Assembly: GCA_964657755.1 (NCBI GenBank) | Contig: CAZZWL010000009.1 | Location: 239 to 64,238, forward strand | Direction: 5' to 3' | Source of the DNA: an uncultured Rhodanobacter sp. | Lineage (GTDB): Bacteria; Bacteroidota; Bacteroidia; Cytophagales; Hymenobacteraceae | Length of the DNA: 64,000 nucleotides | Shown: one piece after another, positions 35,885 to 43,360 of the stretch | How the letters are laid out: each line of letters opens with the position of its first letter | How positions within the stretch are numbered: the first letter of the stretch is position 1 | The notes under the pieces: model-generated | What the model was told of the DNA's origin: nothing | The model's input: the letters and a program-made list of their open reading frames with translations, nothing else | The model's database searches: none | Program-made: the position numbers and the translations under genes

Positions 35885-36889
35885 TCAGAAGCCAGCCAGG
35901 CCATTAGCGGCTAGCTCGCGTAGTAGTTGCCGCAGGCCGGCCGGTTCCCGTAGCTGCCGCGCCAAATGTTCCAGATAGTCCGTTTCGGCGCGCAGGTCGC
36001 GCTTAATCTGGCGCAGGCGGGTGCGCTGCTGCTTCTCGGTGCCACTCCAGGGCTCATCGGCCACGGGGCGTTGCGCGGTGGCCAGCTGCTGGGCCAATTG
36101 CGCGTGCTGCTGCGTCAGCGCGGTGGTATAGCGCCGGAGCAAGGCGTCGGCTTCGGGGCTGGGCGAGGGGGTAGGCGACTCACTGGAGGCCAGCAGCGCG
36201 AGCAGCGCCGCCAAATCGCCCGCCGCGTAGGCGGCCGTGATGCGCTGCATCAGGGCCGTTTGGGCCTGTTGGGTGGCGGCATCAGCCCGGGCCGCGCGGT
36301 CGGGGTGGTGCAGGCGAGCCAGCTGGCGGTAAGCCGCCTTCGTGTTTTGAAGCAATGACTGTTCTTCCGTCTCAGCGGCTTGTGCCTGGGTAGCGCGCTG
36401 CTGGCGGCGCGCTCGGGCGGCGGCGGCGGCCCGTTCGTGGGGTAGGGTGGTCGGGTCATCAGGTTCGGCTGGCGGTGGGGGGGTAGGGGTTTGCGTCTCC
36501 TCGAGCACGGGCGGGGCGGGTGCGTAGCGAGCCAACAATTCGCTCTCATCCTCGCCAAAGCGCCTTTCCAGGCTGCGCGCGTTGTGCACCAGCAGCTCCG
36601 TCACCTGCACCTGCTCGGCGCGGTTGAGGTACCCAGTGGTCAGGGCCAATTCGAGCGGCGCATACAGCGCGCGGCGAGCCGCTACGGCCGCCGCTGCCAC
36701 CGGCCCCACCTGCCGCCAGTACGACTGGCGAGTGGCGGCCTGTGCCGCCCGCAGTGTACTCAGCTGCGCCCGCAAAGCTTCAATAGCCGCCATCGCCTCG
36801 CGAAAAGCGTGCTGCGCCGGCGAACCAACGCTAGTCGCCGCCGCCCGGTCGGGCAGCCATTGGCGCTCAAGAAAAGAAAAGTCAGTCAC
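35885..36889 (-). CDS. Helical protein with internal J-domain-like segment
   Basis: KAAYRQLARLHHPDR...MQRITAAY..GDL contains the HPD motif and is flanked by coiled coils. Confidence 0.75.
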   Translation of the reverse strand: MTDFSFLERQWLPDRAAATSVGSPAQHAFREAMAAIEALRAQLSTLRAAQAATRQSYWRQVGPVAAAAVAARRALYAPLELALTTGYLNRAEQVQVTELLVHNARSLERRFGEDESELLARYAPAPPVLEETQTPTPPPPAEPDDPTTLPHERAAAAARARRQQRATQAQAAETEEQSLLQNTKAAYRQLARLHHPDRAARADAATQQAQTALMQRITAAYAAGDLAALLALLASSESPTPSPSPEADALLRRYTTALTQQHAQLAQQLATAQRPVADEPWSGTEKQQRTRLRQIKRDLRAETDYLEHLARQLREPAGLRQLLRELAANGLAGF

Positions 36890-37050
36890 AGGCTACAAAA
36901 ATAACTCGTAGCTTAATTAAGCGCGTCTTACCAGTGCTACTACCAACTTTCAATGAGCAATTAATTGCTGGATGCTTAATTAATTAAATCCCATCAATTT
37001 CGACGGTTTTGTCCTTTCAAAAAATAATTAAAAAATTATTGAACGAATAG

Positions 37051-37081
37051 TTGCATACGTAAAATAATTGCCCCACCTTTG
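37051..37081 (+). promoter_or_regulatory. Putative sigma-A promoter of the Ro60/Y RNA/RtcB locus
   Basis: TTG (37051) ... CACCTTTG (37074-37081), one mismatch to TAnnTTTG, 20-nt spacing, in AT-rich DNA. Confidence 0.5.
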
Positions 37082-37102
37082 TCACACTAAACCTTCAACG
37101 CC

Positions 37103-37198
37103 ATGTACCGCCACCTGATAAGCCTTTGCAATTCGGATAAAAAGCAGCCAGAAAAGCTGCCCCGGCTCGGTACGTATGCCTGATTTTAGCTTCCGCTA
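37103..37198 (+). CDS. Putative leader peptide 1 (MYRHLISLCNSDKKQPEKLPGSVRMPDFSFR)
   Basis: 31-codon ORF just after the promoter, ending 12 nt before an intrinsic terminator. Confidence 0.5.
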
Positions 37199-37210
37199 AA
37201 ACTGTCGCCG

Positions 37211-37240
37211 CCCGAGCCCTTGAAGCTCGGGTTTTTTGTT
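37211..37240 (+). terminator. Intrinsic terminator 1 in the rsr leader
   Basis: CCCGAGC-ccttgaa-GCTCGGG followed by TTTTTTGTT. Confidence 0.8.
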
Positions 37241-37276
37241 GTTAGCCGGTTATCAGCCGCTTAGCTCATTCCTTCG

Positions 37277-37369
37277 ATGCCCAATTACCGCCCTAGTTTC
37301 CTGCCTGTGTATAGTCAGCTGCAGTTCGGCCTGGCCGGGCGGCATCCAATACCCCGTGGTTTTTCTTAG
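37277..37369 (+). CDS. Putative leader peptide 2 (MPNYRPSFLPVYSQLQFGLAGRHPIPRGFS)
   Basis: 30-codon ORF between terminator 1 and terminator 2. Confidence 0.45.
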   Translation: MPNYRPSFLPVYSQLQFGLAGRHPIPRGFS

Positions 37370-37417
37370 TGTGTGCCCTGCCGATAACTAATCGGTGAGC
37401 CCTTCGCGAAAGTAAAA

Positions 37418-37445
37418 GCCCGGTCCTGAACACCGGGTTTTTTTG
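37418..37445 (+). terminator. Intrinsic terminator 2 in the rsr leader
   Basis: CCCGGT-cctgaac-ACCGGG followed by TTTTTTTG. Confidence 0.8.
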
Positions 37446-37568
37446 TATTCATTTCACAAATAAAAAGTAATTTTTATTTGATTGGGAAAGGTGCGCCTAA
37501 TGCCAATTAGTAATTAATTAATCGGTAATTAATTACCACCCATTTCCCACCCAGTATTCTTTTTTGTA

Positions 37569-39098
37569 ATGCGTTTCAACCTCAATTTTCGCGGCAACGC
37601 CGCGCTGGTTCGCAACCACGAAAACGCGCCGGCTTTTGCCCTCACCCCGGCTCAGGAGCTGTACGCCGCCGTAGCGACGGCCGCCCTTAGCGACCAGTTC
37701 TACGAGTCGGCCAACACCCGCCTGGCCCGCCTGCGCGAGTTGGTGGCCCGCAGCGACCCGCAGTTTGTGGTCCGGCTGGCCGTGTATGCCCGCGAGCAGC
37801 TCTACCTGCGTTCGGTGCCGTTGGTGCTGGCCATAGAATTGGCCCGCATTCACCGGGGCGATAACCTGGTGAGCCGCTTAGTGGCGCGGGTGGTGCAGCG
37901 CGCCGACGAAATCCCCGAACTACTGGCCTTTTACGCCCAGGCCAATGGCCGTACCGGGGCGAAAGTCCTGGGTCGGCTTTCCAAGCAGATGCAGCATGGT
38001 CTGGCCCTGGCGTTCAATAAATTCGACGCCTACCAGCTGGCCAAGTACGACCGCGACGGCGCGGCCGTGCGCCTCCGCGATGCCCTGTTCCTGGTGCACC
38101 CCAAGCCCCGCGACGAGGCGCAGCAGGCGGTATTCAATCAGCTCGTGGCTGGCACGCTGCCGGTGCCCTACACCTGGGAAACCGAGCTGTCGGCCGCTGG
38201 GCAGGTGGCCTACCCCTCGCCCGCCGAGCGGCAGGCGGCTCTCACTCGCACTTGGGAAACGCTGGTGGCCAGCCGCCGCCTGGGCTACATGGCCTTGCTG
38301 CGCAACCTGCGCAACTTGCTGGAAGCCAACGTAAGCGCCGATACGCTGGCCCTGGCCGGCGCCACCCTCGCCGATGCCGGCCAGGTGGCCCGCGCCCGGC
38401 AATTGCCCTTCCGCTTCCTGGCCGCCTACCGCGAGGTGTTGGCCCTGGAAGCGGGCGCGGCGCCCCCGGTGCTGGCCGCGCTGGAGGCCGCCATTGGGGC
38501 CAGTGCCCGCAACCTGTGCGGTTTCGGGGCCGACACCCGCGTGGTGGTGGCCTGCGACGTATCGGGCTCGATGCAGCAACCTATTTCGCCGCGCAGCAAA
38601 GTGCTGCTCTACGACGTGGGCCTGGTGCTGGGCATGTTGCTGCAAAGCCGCTGCCAGCACGTAGTTACCGGCATCTTCGGCAACACCTGGAAGCGGGTGG
38701 CGCTGCCCCAGGGCCAGGTGCTGCGCAACGTGCAGGAGCTGTACCGGCGCGAGGGGGAGGTGGGCTACGCCACCAACGGCCACCTTGTGGTGCAGGACCT
38801 GCGCCAACGCCGCGAGGTAGTGGATAAGGTGATGATTTTCACCGATTGCCAGCTCTGGGATAGTGCCGGGCAAGGTAACACGCTGGCTCAGGAATGGGCC
38901 GCCTACCGCGCCAACGTGGCGCCCCAGGCTCGCCTCTACCTCTTTGACCTGGCCGGCCACGGTACCGCCCCGCTCGACGTGCGCGCCGAGCACGGCGTGG
39001 CCCTCATCGCCGGCTGGTCGGATAAAATCTTCGACGTGCTCGCCGCCCTCGAAACGGGGGGTAGCGCGCTCACCGAAATCGAAAAAATTGAGCTGTAA
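37569..39098 (+). CDS. rsr: Ro60/Rsr TROVE-domain RNA-binding protein with vWA domain
   Basis: AVYAREQLYLRS.P, KYDR...VRLRDALFLVHPKP, YTWETELS, LGYMALLRNLRN, vWA MIDAS-like DVSGSM, IFTDCQ. Confidence 0.95.
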   Translation: MRFNLNFRGNAALVRNHENAPAFALTPAQELYAAVATAALSDQFYESANTRLARLRELVARSDPQFVVRLAVYAREQLYLRSVPLVLAIELARIHRGDNLVSRLVARVVQRADEIPELLAFYAQANGRTGAKVLGRLSKQMQHGLALAFNKFDAYQLAKYDRDGAAVRLRDALFLVHPKPRDEAQQAVFNQLVAGTLPVPYTWETELSAAGQVAYPSPAERQAALTRTWETLVASRRLGYMALLRNLRNLLEANVSADTLALAGATLADAGQVARARQLPFRFLAAYREVLALEAGAAPPVLAALEAAIGASARNLCGFGADTRVVVACDVSGSMQQPISPRSKVLLYDVGLVLGMLLQSRCQHVVTGIFGNTWKRVALPQGQVLRNVQELYRREGEVGYATNGHLVVQDLRQRREVVDKVMIFTDCQLWDSAGQGNTLAQEWAAYRANVAPQARLYLFDLAGHGTAPLDVRAEHGVALIAGWSDKIFDVLAALETGGSALTEIEKIEL

Positions 39099-39363
39099 AA
39101 ACCAAGCGGCCCGGCCGGGCAATAAAGCGGAAACCCCGGCCAGTTGCGTTAGTCAAGAGCTAGGTTACGAATAAATTAATTTTATTCGGCTTCACTAAAT
39201 CTGGCAAACTAATTGTTCTACTCTTTATACGAATCTGTTCTATGATTCCCGACTTAGGCAAACGGCTGACCCCTTAATGGCAGCCGCTGGCCGGAACGGC
39301 TACCCGCCGGGGCCCTGTTTGCTCCGGCGGCCCGTTCCAAACCAGTCCCCAACTCCCTCTCTT

Positions 39364-39476
39364 TCAGGTGCCGTAGGCTCGGCGTTACTTCGTGGTTGTC
39401 GGCGCAAGCCGTAGGGTTCGAATCCCACTGCTGCTATTTCGGTAGCAGTAGATACGCTGGCCGCTTGTCGCCCTGA
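39364..39476 (+). ncRNA. Y RNA-like unit 1 (permuted class II tRNA mimic, no D arm)
   Basis: GGTGCCGTAG ... CGCTTGTCGCCC terminal element, TACTTCG, variable arm CGGC-gcaa-GCCG, T arm GGGTTCGAATCCC, hairpin-closed acceptor CTGCTGCTA/TAGCAGTAG. Confidence 0.75.
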
Positions 39477-39504
39477 ATTTGGAGCTGCTGATTTTTTTCT
39501 GGTG

Positions 39505-39646
39505 AAACCGGGTGCCATCGCGCAGCCATCCTTCGCTCCTTTTTGGGTTGGTCGCGGGTTCGACTCCCGAAGTAGCGTTGCGTAAGTAATGCCGCGTTTG
39601 CGCAGGGGTAGGGCCAGCCCGTGGCTGCCAATTATTGCCCCGGTTT
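39505..39646 (+). ncRNA. Y RNA-like unit 2 (degenerate)
   Basis: Outer stem AAACCGGG/CCCGGTTT, TGCCATCG variant, inner stem GCAGCCA/TGGCTGC, TCCTTCG, T arm CGGGTTCGACTCCCG. Confidence 0.65.
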
Positions 39647-39714
39647 TTCAGAAATTATTCTGCCGTTTTCCGAGCAATTAATTAATTATTCGGAATAAAA
39701 TTTCAAGCACTAAA

Positions 39715-39856
39715 CAGCGGGTGCTGTAGGCGGGCCATCCTTCGGAAGTTGTGCCGCAAGGTGTGCAGGTTCAAGTCCTGCCCCAGGGCTTGCCCTAGGT
39801 GGCGAAATTAGTAGACGCGCTCCTCAATAGCCGGCCTGCCGCTTGTTGCCCCGCTG
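39715..39856 (+). ncRNA. Y RNA-like unit 3 (permuted tRNA-Leu-like mimic)
   Basis: CAGCGGG/CCCGCTG outer stem, TCCTTCG, variable arm GCC-gcaa-GGT, T arm GCAGGTTCAAGTCCTGC, then D arm GGTGGCGAAATTAGTAGACGCGC, and 3' CGCTTGTTGCCC. Confidence 0.8.
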
Positions 39857-39865
39857 CTTATTTTT

Positions 39866-40017
39866 AATCTAGTTGGGTGCCGTAGCCCGGCCATACTTCG
39901 ACTCTTAATCGCCAGGTCGCGGGTTTGAATCCCGCTGGCCGCTGCTTTGGTAGCGGCTGTAGCTCAGTCAGGTAGAGCAGGATATGGCGGCTGGGCGCTT
40001 GTTGCCCCAACTAGATT
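39866..40017 (+). ncRNA. Y RNA-like unit 4 (permuted tRNA-Lys(CTT)-like mimic)
   Basis: AATCTAGTTGGG/CCCAACTAGATT outer stem, TGCCGTAG, TACTTCG, GACTCTTAATC anticodon loop, T arm GCGGGTTTGAATCCCGC, acceptor TGGCCGC/GCGGCTG, D arm TAGCTCAGTCAGGTAGAGC, CGCTTGTTGCCC. Confidence 0.85.
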
Positions 40018-40028
40018 TAGCTTACTAC

Positions 40029-40161
40029 TACCGGTGCCGTAGGTGCGCCTTACTTCGTTCGATACGGTGCGGTCGCGGGTTCGATTCCCGTTCGTGGGTC
40101 CGGCCCACGGTAGCTCAGTTGGCTAGAGCACATTCAGTGGTGCGCCGCTTGTTGCCCGGTA
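40029..40161 (+). ncRNA. Y RNA-like unit 5 (permuted class I tRNA mimic)
   Basis: TACCGG/CCGGTA outer stem, TGCCGTAG, TACTTCG, T arm CGGGTTCGATTCCCG, acceptor CGTGGG/CCCACG, D arm TAGCTCAGTTGGCTAGAGC, CGCTTGTTGCCC. Confidence 0.85.
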
Positions 40162-40292
40162 TTTTTTAATTAATTTTTCACGCGTACTAATTCGTTTTTT
40201 ATGTCCAGAAATACACCCATCTCCGACCCATTTATATGGCCTATTCACCCACCTAATTCGGCGGCCGGAATTTCGGGCCGCGCCCTTGGCAC

Positions 40293-41600
40293 ATGGCCAA
40301 CCGCAACAAACCTTTATCGGCTCAGGCGCGCACGGCGCTGCGGGCTGCCGCTGCCCTAGCGCAGCATTTGCCCTGGCAAAAATGGCCGCCGGCCCGCCAG
40401 GTAGCGTTTATCTTTTCACCCGATGCCGCGCAGGTTATCGGCGCCCAGGCCGAGCCGCATTCGGCCCTGGCGCAGCTGCACCGCCACTGCGTGGCCACCC
40501 GCACCGGCAATGAGCAGGGGCGCATCCGCCACTTCCTCAGCCAGCTTATCAAGTGCCGAACCCGGCTGCTGGACCGCCCCGAGCTGGCTCCGGCCCTGGC
40601 GCACCTGGGCCTGCACTACGCCCACCGGGTGCGCGAAGTAGCCAGCTGGCAGCCGCGCTCCAAAAACGTTTTTTACCAGCTCGACAGCTTAATTCGCCAC
40701 CTTTTTGACCAGTTTGGCGATGTGCCGGGTTGGGTGCTCAATGGCTGGGGTAGGGCGCCCGAGCAGCCCACGGGCGTCGACCTCACGCTGCTTCTTTTGC
40801 ACCTGGGTAGGGGCCAGGCGCTGCGGAGTTTCGCGGGTTTGCCCGTGCCGCTCACCAAGCGCTTGGAGCACGGCTTGCGGCAGGCCCCGGACGGCTGCAC
40901 GTTCCAAGAAGCCTACCGCTACGCCCAACTGGCGGCCCGCGACGCAACCGAGTGGCTGGGCGTAGTGCTCGACTCGCGGCTGGGTCGCGAGCCCATCGGC
41001 CCCGACGATGCGCTGTGGCTGGCGGTGCTCGACCTGTTTCGGGCCGAGCCGGAGGTCGATGCCTGGCAATTTGGCCCGGTGTGCGACTGGATTCACTTCC
41101 GCCGCCGCGTGGGCAGCCTGGCCGAGCCGGCGCAGCCCAACTTCTCGCTGCGGGGCCGCAGCCTGGCCTCGCTGCTGGCGCACACCGCGCGCTGGCATCG
41201 CACGCTAAACCCAGCCCGGCGCAACCCGCGCTTTCAGGAGCTGCTGGCGGCCGTGTGGCCGGGGCTGGCGGTGCCCGATTTTGCGGGCGGCGACGGCGAG
41301 TGGGTCCACATCCGGCAGCTGCGCAGCTACCCCGAATTGCTCGACGAAGGCCGCCACATGCACCACTGCGTGGCCTCCTACGTGCACCAGTGCAAGCGTG
41401 GGCGGCGGGGTATCTATTCACTCACCTTCAACGGCGGCCGGATGCTGACCCTCGAAGTCACGCCCGAATACCAGCTGGTGCAGGTCCGTGGCAAGTACAA
41501 CCGCCGCCCTACCCCCCTCGAGCGCCACTGGCTTGCCCACTGGCTCCGAAAGGAGCGCCTCACGGCCGCCGACCGGGTGTGGGAGGGCGTTTTCGACTAA
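40293..41600 (+). CDS. PcfJ-like domain protein
   Basis: C-terminal L..EG..MHHCVASY...IYSL...LTLEV...QVRGKYN motif characteristic of PcfJ-like proteins. Confidence 0.85.
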   Translation: MANRNKPLSAQARTALRAAAALAQHLPWQKWPPARQVAFIFSPDAAQVIGAQAEPHSALAQLHRHCVATRTGNEQGRIRHFLSQLIKCRTRLLDRPELAPALAHLGLHYAHRVREVASWQPRSKNVFYQLDSLIRHLFDQFGDVPGWVLNGWGRAPEQPTGVDLTLLLLHLGRGQALRSFAGLPVPLTKRLEHGLRQAPDGCTFQEAYRYAQLAARDATEWLGVVLDSRLGREPIGPDDALWLAVLDLFRAEPEVDAWQFGPVCDWIHFRRRVGSLAEPAQPNFSLRGRSLASLLAHTARWHRTLNPARRNPRFQELLAAVWPGLAVPDFAGGDGEWVHIRQLRSYPELLDEGRHMHHCVASYVHQCKRGRRGIYSLTFNGGRMLTLEVTPEYQLVQVRGKYNRRPTPLERHWLAHWLRKERLTAADRVWEGVFD

Positions 41601-41794: not shown

Positions 41795-41908
41795 AGCCGC
41801 TGGAACGTCATTCCGAGCTTGTCGAGGAATCTCGCTCGCTTCGTTGAACGATACCCGAACGGCCTGGGCGAGATTCCTCGGCAAGCTCGGAATGACGTTC
41901 CAGCGGCT
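41795..41908. repeat. REP/MITE-like inverted repeat (GTCATTCCGAG type)
   Basis: 41-bp arms AGCCGCTGGAACGTCATTCCGAGCTTGTCGAGGAATCTCGC / GCGAGATTCCTCGGCAAGCTCGGAATGACGTTCCAGCGGCT with one G-U pair. Confidence 0.8.
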
Positions 41909-41959
41909 GTCCGCATGCCAATTCATCATTCCAAATACCCCATTCTAAATCTCAAACTA

Positions 41960-43360
41960 ATGGCTTCTATTTTACGGGGCAATGACTTGCGGCAGCTCGG
42001 GTTTCCCGAGGGCCGCGCTATCGGGCTGGCGCTGGCGCAGTTGCAGCGCAAAGAACACAAGCGCCTGACCCAGGCCGACCAGCTCGAATTGCTGAAAGCA
42101 ATTCTGGCGACGCCCACCGATTTTCTTACCGACCTGGCCTGGAGCCACACCGCCGCCGCGCTGCTACCCCCCGTGTCGCGGCACATCGAGCTGGTGGCGC
42201 GCAAGCCCTACGTCACCTTCGGCGCCGAACACATCGACGCCGGGGCGGTGCACCAGATGGAAACCGCCATGAAGCTGCCCGTGACCGTGGCCGGCGCCCT
42301 CATGCCCGACGCCCACCACGGCTACGGCCTGCCCATCGGCGGCGTGCTGGCCACCGATAACGCCGTGATTCCCTACGCCGTGGGCGTGGACATTGGCTGC
42401 CGCATGGCCCTCTCGGTGTATGACCTGCCGGCCAAGTACCTCACCCAGCGCGTGCAGGAAGTGCGCCACCTGCTGCTCGAAAACACCCGTTTCGGTAGCG
42501 GCCGCAGCTGGGAGCGGGGCCAGCGCCTCGACCACGCCGTGCTGCACAGCGACACGTTCCAGGCCATTCCGTTTCTGAAAAACAAGCTCGACCGCGCCGC
42601 TGAGCAGGTGGGCACGTCGGGCTCGGGCAACCACTTCGTGGAGTTCGGGATTGTGGAAATCATCGACCCAGCCAACGAGTTGGCCCTACCCCCCGGTCAG
42701 TACGTGGGCGTGCTCTCGCACTCGGGCTCGCGGGGGCTGGGCGCGGGCATTGCCGAGCACTATACCAAGCTCGCCAAAGACGTGTGCCAGCTGCCCGCCG
42801 AGGCGCAAAACCTGGCCTGGCTGGGCCTCGACACCGAGGCCGGCCAGGAATACTGGGCCGCCATGAACCTGGCCGGCGACTACGCCTCGGCTTGCCACGA
42901 CCAGATTCACCGTCGGCTAGCGCGCGCCTTGGGCGAAAAGCCGCTGGCGAAAGTGGAAAACCACCACAACTTCGCCTGGAAGGAGCGCCTGGCCGATGGC
43001 CGCGAGGTCATCACGCACCGCAAGGGCGCTACCCCGGCCGGCGCGGGCGTGCTCGGCATTATTCCCGGCTCCATGACGGCCCCCGGCTTCATTGTGCGGG
43101 GTAGGGGCGCGGCGGCGTCGCTGGCTTCGGCCTCGCACGGGGCGGGCCGGCTGCTGTCGCGCACCCGCGCCAAGGCCGAAATCGGCGAAGCCGACCTACG
43201 CCGGCAGCTTGCCGACCACGGCGTGGAGCTGCTCGGCGGTGGCCTCGACGAAGCCCCACAGGCCTACAAAGACATCCACACCGTGATGGCCAGCCAGCGC
43301 GAATTAGTGGATGTGCTCGGCTCCTTCACGCCCAGAATCGTGCGGATGGATGGTGCTTGA
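41960..43360 (+). CDS. rtcB: RtcB family RNA ligase with N-terminal extension
   Basis: MPDAHHGYGLPIGG, VDIGC, GSGNHF, SHSGSRG, NHHNF, HRKGA, IPGSM, SHGAG, DEAPQAYK. Start placed at ATG 41960. Confidence 0.96.
   Translation: MASILRGNDLRQLGFPEGRAIGLALAQLQRKEHKRLTQADQLELLKAILATPTDFLTDLAWSHTAAALLPPVSRHIELVARKPYVTFGAEHIDAGAVHQMETAMKLPVTVAGALMPDAHHGYGLPIGGVLATDNAVIPYAVGVDIGCRMALSVYDLPAKYLTQRVQEVRHLLLENTRFGSGRSWERGQRLDHAVLHSDTFQAIPFLKNKLDRAAEQVGTSGSGNHFVEFGIVEIIDPANELALPPGQYVGVLSHSGSRGLGAGIAEHYTKLAKDVCQLPAEAQNLAWLGLDTEAGQEYWAAMNLAGDYASACHDQIHRRLARALGEKPLAKVENHHNFAWKERLADGREVITHRKGATPAGAGVLGIIPGSMTAPGFIVRGRGAAASLASASHGAGRLLSRTRAKAEIGEADLRRQLADHGVELLGGGLDEAPQAYKDIHTVMASQRELVDVLGSFTPRIVRMDGA

Follow-up and report, generated by a model that had tools for sequence, protein, structure and literature searches.

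In Salmonella (rsr-yrlBA-rtcBA) and Escherichia coli (rtcBA), operons for RNA repair and surveillance are controlled by RtcR together with sigma-54 (PMC7790460, PMC5175333, PMC10159003), and in E. coli the expression of the rtc genes responds to an impaired translation apparatus (PMC5175333; the inducers are likewise matched to PMC7790460). RtcR, a CARF-domain enhancer-binding protein, senses tRNA fragments and acts at initiation, which raises the question of how bacteria devoid of this regulator decide on the expression of Ro60, Y RNAs and RtcB. Leaders that use the ribosome itself as a sensor have been established elsewhere (PMC12121999, PMC6310831, PMC10314930), with short upstream open reading frames (uORFs) in which ribosomes stall, such as those of Listeria hflXr/lmo0762 and lmo0919 (PMC6310831), the msrD leader (PMC10314930), toiL-topAI of E. 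coli (PMC12121999) and the yxjB leader (PMC6851288). The locus described here belongs to a Hymenobacter genome and lies within the 64,000-nt stretch of DNA that was analyzed as a whole (the window), in the 680-nt intergenic stretch 5' of rsr, the gene encoding Ro60. This region holds two consecutive units, each composed of a short uORF and an intrinsic terminator, within an element (37051-37445) that is real, conserved and cis-regulatory. On comparative evidence from sequence, we consider the two units to be probably, albeit with appreciable reserve, ribosome-dependent transcription attenuators working in series and sensing slowed elongation.

The layout recalls the attenuators of amino-acid operons (trp, his, thr, leu, ilv, pheA), with a short leader open reading frame (ORF), an intrinsic terminator before the first structural gene and mutually exclusive pairings of segments 1:2, 2:3 and 3:4, comprising a 2:3 antiterminator and a 1:2 anti-antiterminator; the position of the ribosome, which selects the hairpin in trp-type leaders, would do so here as well. 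What separates the locus from that family is the lack of a run of cognate regulatory codons for one amino acid, the nature of segment 1, which contains the start codon here and the regulatory codons near the ORF end there, the function of the operon, RNA repair and surveillance instead of biosynthesis, the presence of two attenuators in series and the Bacteroidota host. Judged from sequence, architecture and type of controlled gene also fit the stalling-sensor uORFs: the uORF is short and without amino-acid specificity, the output aids the translation apparatus, and a stalled ribosome would likewise remodel the leader. As a rule, the uORFs of that group are shorter, and several of them are responsive to particular drugs via the nascent peptide, whereas no arrest motif was identified in the present ones, whose tandem arrangement and output (Ro60, Y-like RNAs and RtcB) are also different. 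With the RtcR-controlled operons the locus has in common Ro60, Y-like RNAs, RtcB and, according to our proposal, damage to the translation apparatus as the trigger. The RtcR domain was not found in the genome (98.9% complete; the E. coli control was positive), and regulation is proposed to act on elongation and termination through the ribosome. Finally, as in tandem riboswitches and tandem T-box leaders, two complete terminator-based switches follow each other on one transcript, an arrangement associated with a steeper or two-input response; those leaders bind a ligand or tRNA directly, while the switches considered here would be operated through the translating ribosome.

The conservation of the element was assessed on 80 Ro60 loci (labels such as L001 denote individual loci), in which homologues of unit 1 were searched by BLAST, by a covariance model derived from the leaders of 23 close Hymenobacter loci and by a search for similar terminators; the Ro60 protein of the window shares 95% identity with that of Hymenobacter sp. 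UV11. Unit 1 is present in three Hymenobacter clades (23, 12, and 12 loci), in three metagenome-assembled genomes of other families (L055, L060, and L053) and in L073. The tandem form is shared by Hymenobacter clades 1 and 2, L055, L060, and L053, and L073 has a single unit. No second copy of the units exists elsewhere in the genome, each genome having one, and they were not found at the Ro60 loci of Flavobacterium, Pontibacter and Saprospiraceae. Wherever present, they stand at the operon head, on the same strand, ahead of three different gene orders, being directly followed by rsr in the window, by pcfJ in L025 and apparently in three other loci, and by a tRNA-like array in L055, L060, and L053. 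In the literature we found no description of attenuators ahead of rsr or rtcB.

In unit 1, the homologous ATG-started frame is open in 50 out of 50 leaders of four lineages, with 25-31 codons, the two remaining frames of the region being open in 17 and 5 of them, and the 23 clade-1 loci differ within it by a single indel, of 3 nt. The segment near the end of this ORF, the 5' arm and the 3' arm of the terminator co-vary among lineages, reading GCUCGG/CCGAGC/GCUCGG in clade 1, GUUCGG/CCGAAC/GUUCGG in clades 2 and 3 and GGUCCGGGUGU/ACACCCGGACC/GUCCGGG in L073. When 40 sequences were aligned on the model, about 95% of the cells of the 6-bp antiterminator core were paired, a value that drops to 18-55% with a slid partner; the core contains 11 double changes (C:G to U:A in 10 sequences, U:A to C:G in L073), while terminator 1 is paired in 100% of the cells, with G:C replaced by A:U in 12 sequences. 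The six pairs of the competing helix over the start codon (P1 helix) persist in 21 to 23 of the 23 clade-1 sequences, where all changes are one-sided, and a start-codon helix is kept with changed letters in the other clades (GCUACGCC:GGUAUAGC; AUGCGC:GCGCAU); its 3' strand and the antiterminator strand share two bases. The stop codon starts 7-22 nt past the antiterminator core and is followed by the P3 hairpin, at whose position a hairpin is seen in all clades, and the P2 hairpin inside the frame may be a pause hairpin or a ribosome-slowing structure. When folding of the nascent RNA was considered, a ribosome placed in mid-ORF with the 3' arm still unmade led to the antiterminator, a ribosome on the stop codon made the antiterminator impossible, and in the complete unit 1 RNA the P1 helix, the P3 hairpin and the terminator prevailed. 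The initial annotation, made from the window alone, had extended uORF1 to 37103-37198, which the in-frame TGA at 37181-37183 corrects to 37103-37183 (26 aa), and had set the segment GGCTCGG one base too early (37163-37169 for 37164-37170), with its letters correctly read; its partner CCGAGCC at 37212-37218 is where it was said to be, and the pairing proposed between the two is borne out by the compensatory changes among the relatives.

In unit 2 the length of the frame is the most regular trait. uORF2 measures exactly 36 codons in 12 of 12 clade-2 and 17 of 22 clade-1 leaders (29/34) and 35 codons in four, and the 36-codon length prevails though the middle parts diverge strongly, while the noncoding spacer 3' of uORF2 varies by 1-nt steps. 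The window has a premature TAG at 37367-37369, directly 3' of the conserved antiterminator strand, and its closest relative, L001, has 36 codons; the frame of 30 aa initially annotated is thus correct for the window, as a shortened form with respect to the relatives. RNAalifold on a MAFFT alignment of unit 2, in which the variable hairpin is misaligned, found little, and the unit was assessed by per-sequence folds and by a profile anchored on the ORF. For 34 sequences this profile has a sharp minimum at codons 24-27, with a mean of -10.5 kcal/mol vs. -4 to -6 kcal/mol elsewhere. The strand concerned reads GGCCGUGCUUUUU in clade 1 and GGCCGGGAUUUUU in clade 2 and is complementary to AAAAAGCCCGGCC; in clade 2, where GCCGGGAUUUUU lies opposite AAAAAGCCCGGC, 95% of cells are paired, and in one clade-1 subgroup a partial G:C to A:U change is found. 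The start codon again participates in a helix, which in clade 2 (GGCCAUGC:GUAUGGCC) has 94% of its cells paired, four sequences having U:A in place of C:G, and whose 3' partner lies just 5' of the conserved antiterminator strand or overlaps it. The stems of the hairpin that follows at 37380-37396 covary (CCGG/CCGG, CCAG/CUGG, GUCAC/GUGAC, GCAG/CUGC), as does the stem of terminator 2.

The pairing first proposed for uORF2 was a different one, between GCCGGGC (37334-37340) and GCCCGGT (37418-37424). Both strings are where they were reported and form a good duplex in the window, but a similar site occurs near the same place only in L001 and L010, and in the relatives the best partner is scattered, with z scores of about 0. 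Conservation in orthologous leaders therefore extends to the uORFs and to the pairing of unit 1, not to this strand, whose role passes to 37354-37364. A terminator after each uORF, as initially annotated, was recovered in both cases by a consensus scan, each terminator being strong and having its U run; the likeness noted between their loops (CCTTGAA and CCTGAAC) is correct in its letters, is not kept in the relatives and is probably a coincidence. The wider proposal, two leader-ORF attenuators in series that head the rsr operon in the place of RtcR, finds comparative support and agrees with the absence of RtcR from the genome. The AND gate and the signal of general translation failure, such as tRNA damage, that the initial annotation also envisaged are inferences. 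Coordinates are collected in Table 1.

Table 1. Leader elements and downstream genes of the rsr locus, numbered from the first letter of the window.
Feature	Position	Strand	Description
Promoter P1, Bacteroidota type	37051-37081	+	TTG 37051-37053, 20-nt spacer, CACCTTTG 37074-37081
uORF1	37103-37183	+	26 codons plus TGA (37181-37183): MYRHLISLCNSDKKQPEKLPRLGTYA
Unit 1 region 1	37103-37109	+	AUGUACC including the start codon; pairs with GGUACGU 37169-37175 as anti-antiterminator, P1 helix (RNAfold, RNAalifold)
P2 hairpin in uORF1	37144-37160	+	GCAGC-loop-GCUGC; RNAalifold: five pairs, G:C to A:U double change in 3 sequences
Unit 1 region 2	37164-37175	+	GGCUCGG (37164-37170), copy of the terminator 3' arm, pairs with CCGAGCC 37212-37218 (antiterminator); GGUACGU in the 3' part pairs with region 1
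P3 hairpin, right after the uORF1 stop	37184-37201	+	UUUUAGC-UUCC-GCUAAAA; 4/5 pairs with double compensatory changes
Terminator 1 (regions 3 and 4)	37210-37237	+	Stem-loop 37210-37232: GCCCGAGC, loop CCUUGAA, GCUCGGGU; U run 37232-37237
Small hairpin between terminator 1 and uORF2	37241-37265	+	Loop UUAUCA(G/A); kept in clade 1 only, absent from clade 2
Unit 2 region 1	37276-37281	+	GAUGCC over the start codon; pairs with GGCAUC 37341-37346 (RNAfold, window and relatives)
uORF2	37277-37369	+	30 codons plus TAG in the window; 36 in most relatives
Lineage-specific antiterminator strand	37334-37340	+	GCCGGGC; best duplex in the window, -15.4 kcal/mol, z -2.6
Conserved unit 2 region 2	37354-37364	+	CCGUGGUUUUU; near copy of the terminator 2 3' arm and U run; pairs with AAAAGCCCGG 37414-37423
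Hairpin after uORF2	37380-37396	+	GCCGAUAAC-UAAUCGGU; in relatives the uORF2 stop codon lies in the loop
Terminator 2	37414-37445	+	A run, GCCCGGU, loop CCUGAAC, ACCGGGU, U run; consensus scan 37414-37442
AU-rich covarying hairpin in the rsr 5' leader	37457-37480	+	Stem letters differ by species, pairing kept; followed by conserved GGGAAAGGUGCGCC 37484-37497
rsr (Ro60/TROVE protein, 509 aa)	37569-39098	+	First controlled gene; Pfam TROVE 6.4e-26 and Ro60 vWA domain
tRNA-like RNA array, between rsr and pcfJ	39364-40165		Two units resemble Rfam YrlA
PcfJ-like gene	40293-41600		
RtcB gene	41819-43360		

Taken one sequence at a time, the complementarities do not stand out. The unit 1 duplex of the window has a z score of about -1 against shuffles, and a perfect upstream complement of at least 6 nt to the 5' arm exists for 68 of the 532 simple terminators of the genome (12.8%). 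Single-sequence duplex statistics carry no weight alone, and support comes from the approximately 50 orthologous leaders; as far as these sequences go, the pairing of unit 1 across relatives is far from chance. Terminators whose 5' arm has an 8-nt perfect complement upstream were also encountered at C93:1372(+), C106:14239(+), and C151:6111(+) (contig and position), and these are possible further attenuators of the genome.

Transcription of the element would start near 37087, from promoter P1. Its TTG and CCTTTG elements are kept in 23 of 23 clade-1 relatives, a perfect TACCTTTG is found in the other clades and, one weak candidate aside, P1 is the sole well-spaced -33/-7 pair in 36890-37600. 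A promoter of rsr itself past 37445 had been named by the initial annotation as evidence that would speak against attenuation; no conserved -33/-7 pair was seen 3' of terminator 2, and the weak candidate is the single one there. In clade 2 the ATG of uORF2 follows terminator 1 at a distance of only about 25 nt, which leaves no space for a separate promoter, so that uORF2 must be transcribed by read-through. A unit 2 promoter within the hairpin 37241-37265, with a TAGCTCAT or TAGCTTTT box and TTG 20 nt upstream, was considered and would be possible in clade 1, but clade 2 has no room for it. Palindromes of the AATTAATT type were noticed on both sides of the attenuators, at 36915-36990 (5' of P1) and at 37503-37540 in the rsr 5' leader, where a block like AATTAATT is kept in both Hymenobacter clades, and they may be the site of a DNA-binding regulator.

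What is observed are the features of the sequence, the way they are conserved and covary, and the lack of RtcR; from these we infer that the uORFs are translated, that the terminators are used in vivo and that the signal is of the kind outlined below. One promoter and two attenuators would gate rsr, the Y-like RNA array, the pcfJ-like gene and rtcB. Each unit comprises four segments, namely one containing the start codon (1), one within the last codons of the ORF that nearly copies the terminator 3' arm (2), and the two arms of the terminator (3 and 4). If no ribosome loads, 1 would pair with 2, the terminator would form and transcription would stop; if a ribosome translates at normal speed, it would reach the stop codon and cover segment 2, with the terminator forming again. 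Only a ribosome that has initiated and is stalled or crawling in the first two thirds of the ORF would hold segment 1 open and leave 2 free, and the latter could then pair with 3 before 4 exists, allowing the polymerase to read through. Because both units need to be read through, their probabilities would multiply, with less basal leak and a steeper response as the expected outcome. Since neither ORF has a run of a single codon, elongation that is slowed in general, or at several tRNAs, is the most likely signal, with damage to tRNA or rRNA and ribosome inhibitors as examples of its cause, and the leader would be a functional substitute for RtcR control; such a signal matches the inducers of rtc in E. 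coli (PMC5175333, PMC7790460) and the known uORF sensors of stalling. If this is true, a ribosome-operated switch would couple RNA repair to the performance of the very machine being repaired, without a dedicated sensor protein, and a well-conserved case of tandem leader-ORF attenuation would be added for the Bacteroidota, in which it is rarely described. The roughly 50 natural variants constitute a ready-made set of compensatory mutations.

The composition of the leader peptides offers a more specific lead. Tyr, His, Asn and Asp are all present in 37 of 47 uORF1 peptides from four lineages, vs. 9-14% of random peptides of equal length; the sequences are related, and the enrichment is therefore to be taken as a lead and not as a result. 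Codons for Lys, Gln, Glu and Arg are found in these peptides as well. The tRNAs for Tyr, His, Asn and Asp are those that carry queuosine, and anticodon nucleases of the colicin E5 type cleave this set. The leader peptides could accordingly be tuned sensors of anticodon-nuclease damage and not of translation in general, an extension that we regard as unlikely. In that case the ribosome would halt in the leader once any of these tRNAs is cleaved, turning on Ro60, the tRNA-mimicking Y RNAs and RtcB, which reseals the breaks, and two different leaders in series would let the operon fire only when several tRNA species fail together.

Several observations weigh against ribosome-dependent attenuation. 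A tandem repeat of any amino acid, or a run of regulatory codons, was not found in any uORF1 or uORF2 peptide, and the antiterminator duplexes of single sequences are no better than those of shuffles (z about 0 to -1 mostly). Independent covariation events are few, two for the antiterminator of unit 1 and one for the start-codon helix of unit 2, and double changes in the largely invariant antiterminator of unit 2 are absent from clade 2. Bacteroidota lack initiation led by Shine-Dalgarno sequences and, to our knowledge, leader-peptide attenuation is little documented among them. A weak candidate promoter lies 3' of terminator 2, where TTG precedes TAATTTTT (37468) by 22 nt. Lastly, uORF1 has no excess of variation at third positions (mean column entropies of 0.54, 0.71, and 0.60 at the first, second and third codon position) and several of its codons, e.g., UUCGGAUAA, are invariant at the nucleotide level, which indicates a constraint on the RNA and not on the peptide; its open frame could in part be a by-product of this constraint. 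As judged from these sequences the uORF1 peptide as such is probably not under selection, which fits a leader ORF and also an RNA switch operated by a factor. Such a switch, in which a trans-acting factor (Rsr or another RNA-binding protein, uncharged or damaged tRNA, or a small ligand) works the terminators and antiterminators and the frames are incidental or secondary, is rather unlikely in our view; the constraint at the nucleotide level speaks for it. The invariant block AAUUCGGAUAAGA and the covarying P2 and P3 hairpins would suit a folded sensor, the alternative pairings hold whether or not the RNA is translated, and the frame across the antiterminator strand varies by clade (CUC GGU vs. 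GUU CGG). A factor of this kind leaves unexplained why ORFs are kept in 50 leaders for unit 1 and 34 for unit 2, with lengths that differ only by whole codons, and why start codons always fall in segment 1 and stop codons always just past segment 2. Moreover, the invariant block of clade 1 is not kept in clades 2 to 4, which argues against a universal binding motif, and no Rfam family, YrlA included, matches the region (36850-37620) even at E = 10.

The same pattern of constraint bears on the possibility that the units are independent small genes, encoding proteins of 26 and 30-36 aa or small RNAs and closed by their own terminators, with rsr transcribed from a promoter past 37445; selection on the frames is unlike that on a protein, and we hold this explanation to be quite improbable. 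Unit 1 does possess its own conserved promoter and a strong terminator, some similarity among the peptides of different clades can be recognized (M.RH...S..D.M.P), with serine TCG changed to AGT or AGC in "SDK", and the promoter-like site at 37468 would be available for rsr. On the other hand, the concerted change of uORF segment and both terminator arms has no role in a simple gene, the spacing in clade 2 denies uORF2 a promoter of its own, no promoter past terminator 2 is conserved, and the units are invariably found on the same strand at the operon head. Their position raises the further question of whether they are Y-RNA-like partners of Ro60, analogues of YrlA and YrlB. Bacterial Y RNAs adjoin rsr, within 500 nt and on the same strand, and carry a GNCGAAN0-1G motif near the 5' end (PMC4201824); the units are placed likewise, and a long helix links the 5' and 3' segments of unit 1. 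The motif, the T-arm and the D-arm are absent from the units, in which direct reading of the sequence found UUCGGAU and UUCGAUG as the nearest strings, and the YrlA-like matches are located instead downstream of rsr (Rfam RF02553, sub-threshold, 39887-40011 and 40028-40165, 36 bits, E 1.2e-5 and 1.9e-5). Y RNA identity, which would also leave the conserved ORFs and the alternative pairings unexplained, was the initial hypothesis and was dropped for the lack of a YrlA match and of the GNCGAAN0-1G motif and for the presence of the YrlA-like units downstream; we consider it very improbable indeed. Ribosome-dependent attenuation remains the reading that we prefer.

Some features of the surrounding genes can be added. 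The divergent gene upstream of the element (35885-36889, - strand, 334 aa) has a weak DnaJ-domain match only, under the Pfam cut-off. The PcfJ-like gene varies in its place, as it precedes rsr in L025 (1568-2863) and follows it in the window, always 3' of both attenuators; gaps of 1.1-2 kb in L012, L013, and L014 suggest that pcfJ lies before rsr there, as in L025. In the three metagenome-assembled genomes, tRNA-like sequences with GGTTCGAATCC T-arm motifs come directly after the attenuators (1930-2100 in L055, 1440-1600 in L060, and 2540-2650 in L053), and are followed by a 169-aa ORF (listed for L055) and then by Ro60. Within the array of the window, one of the YrlA-like units also matches tRNA weakly. 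The AU-rich hairpin 3' of terminator 2 is formed by CAAAUAAAAA...UUUUUAUUUG, and the conserved GGGAAAGGUGCGCC next to it resembles GGUGCCGUAGG, with which the downstream Y-like units start. Similar AU-rich hairpins are found between the Y-like units, at 39169-39189 and at about 39672-39700, and these structures may be processing or protein-binding sites.

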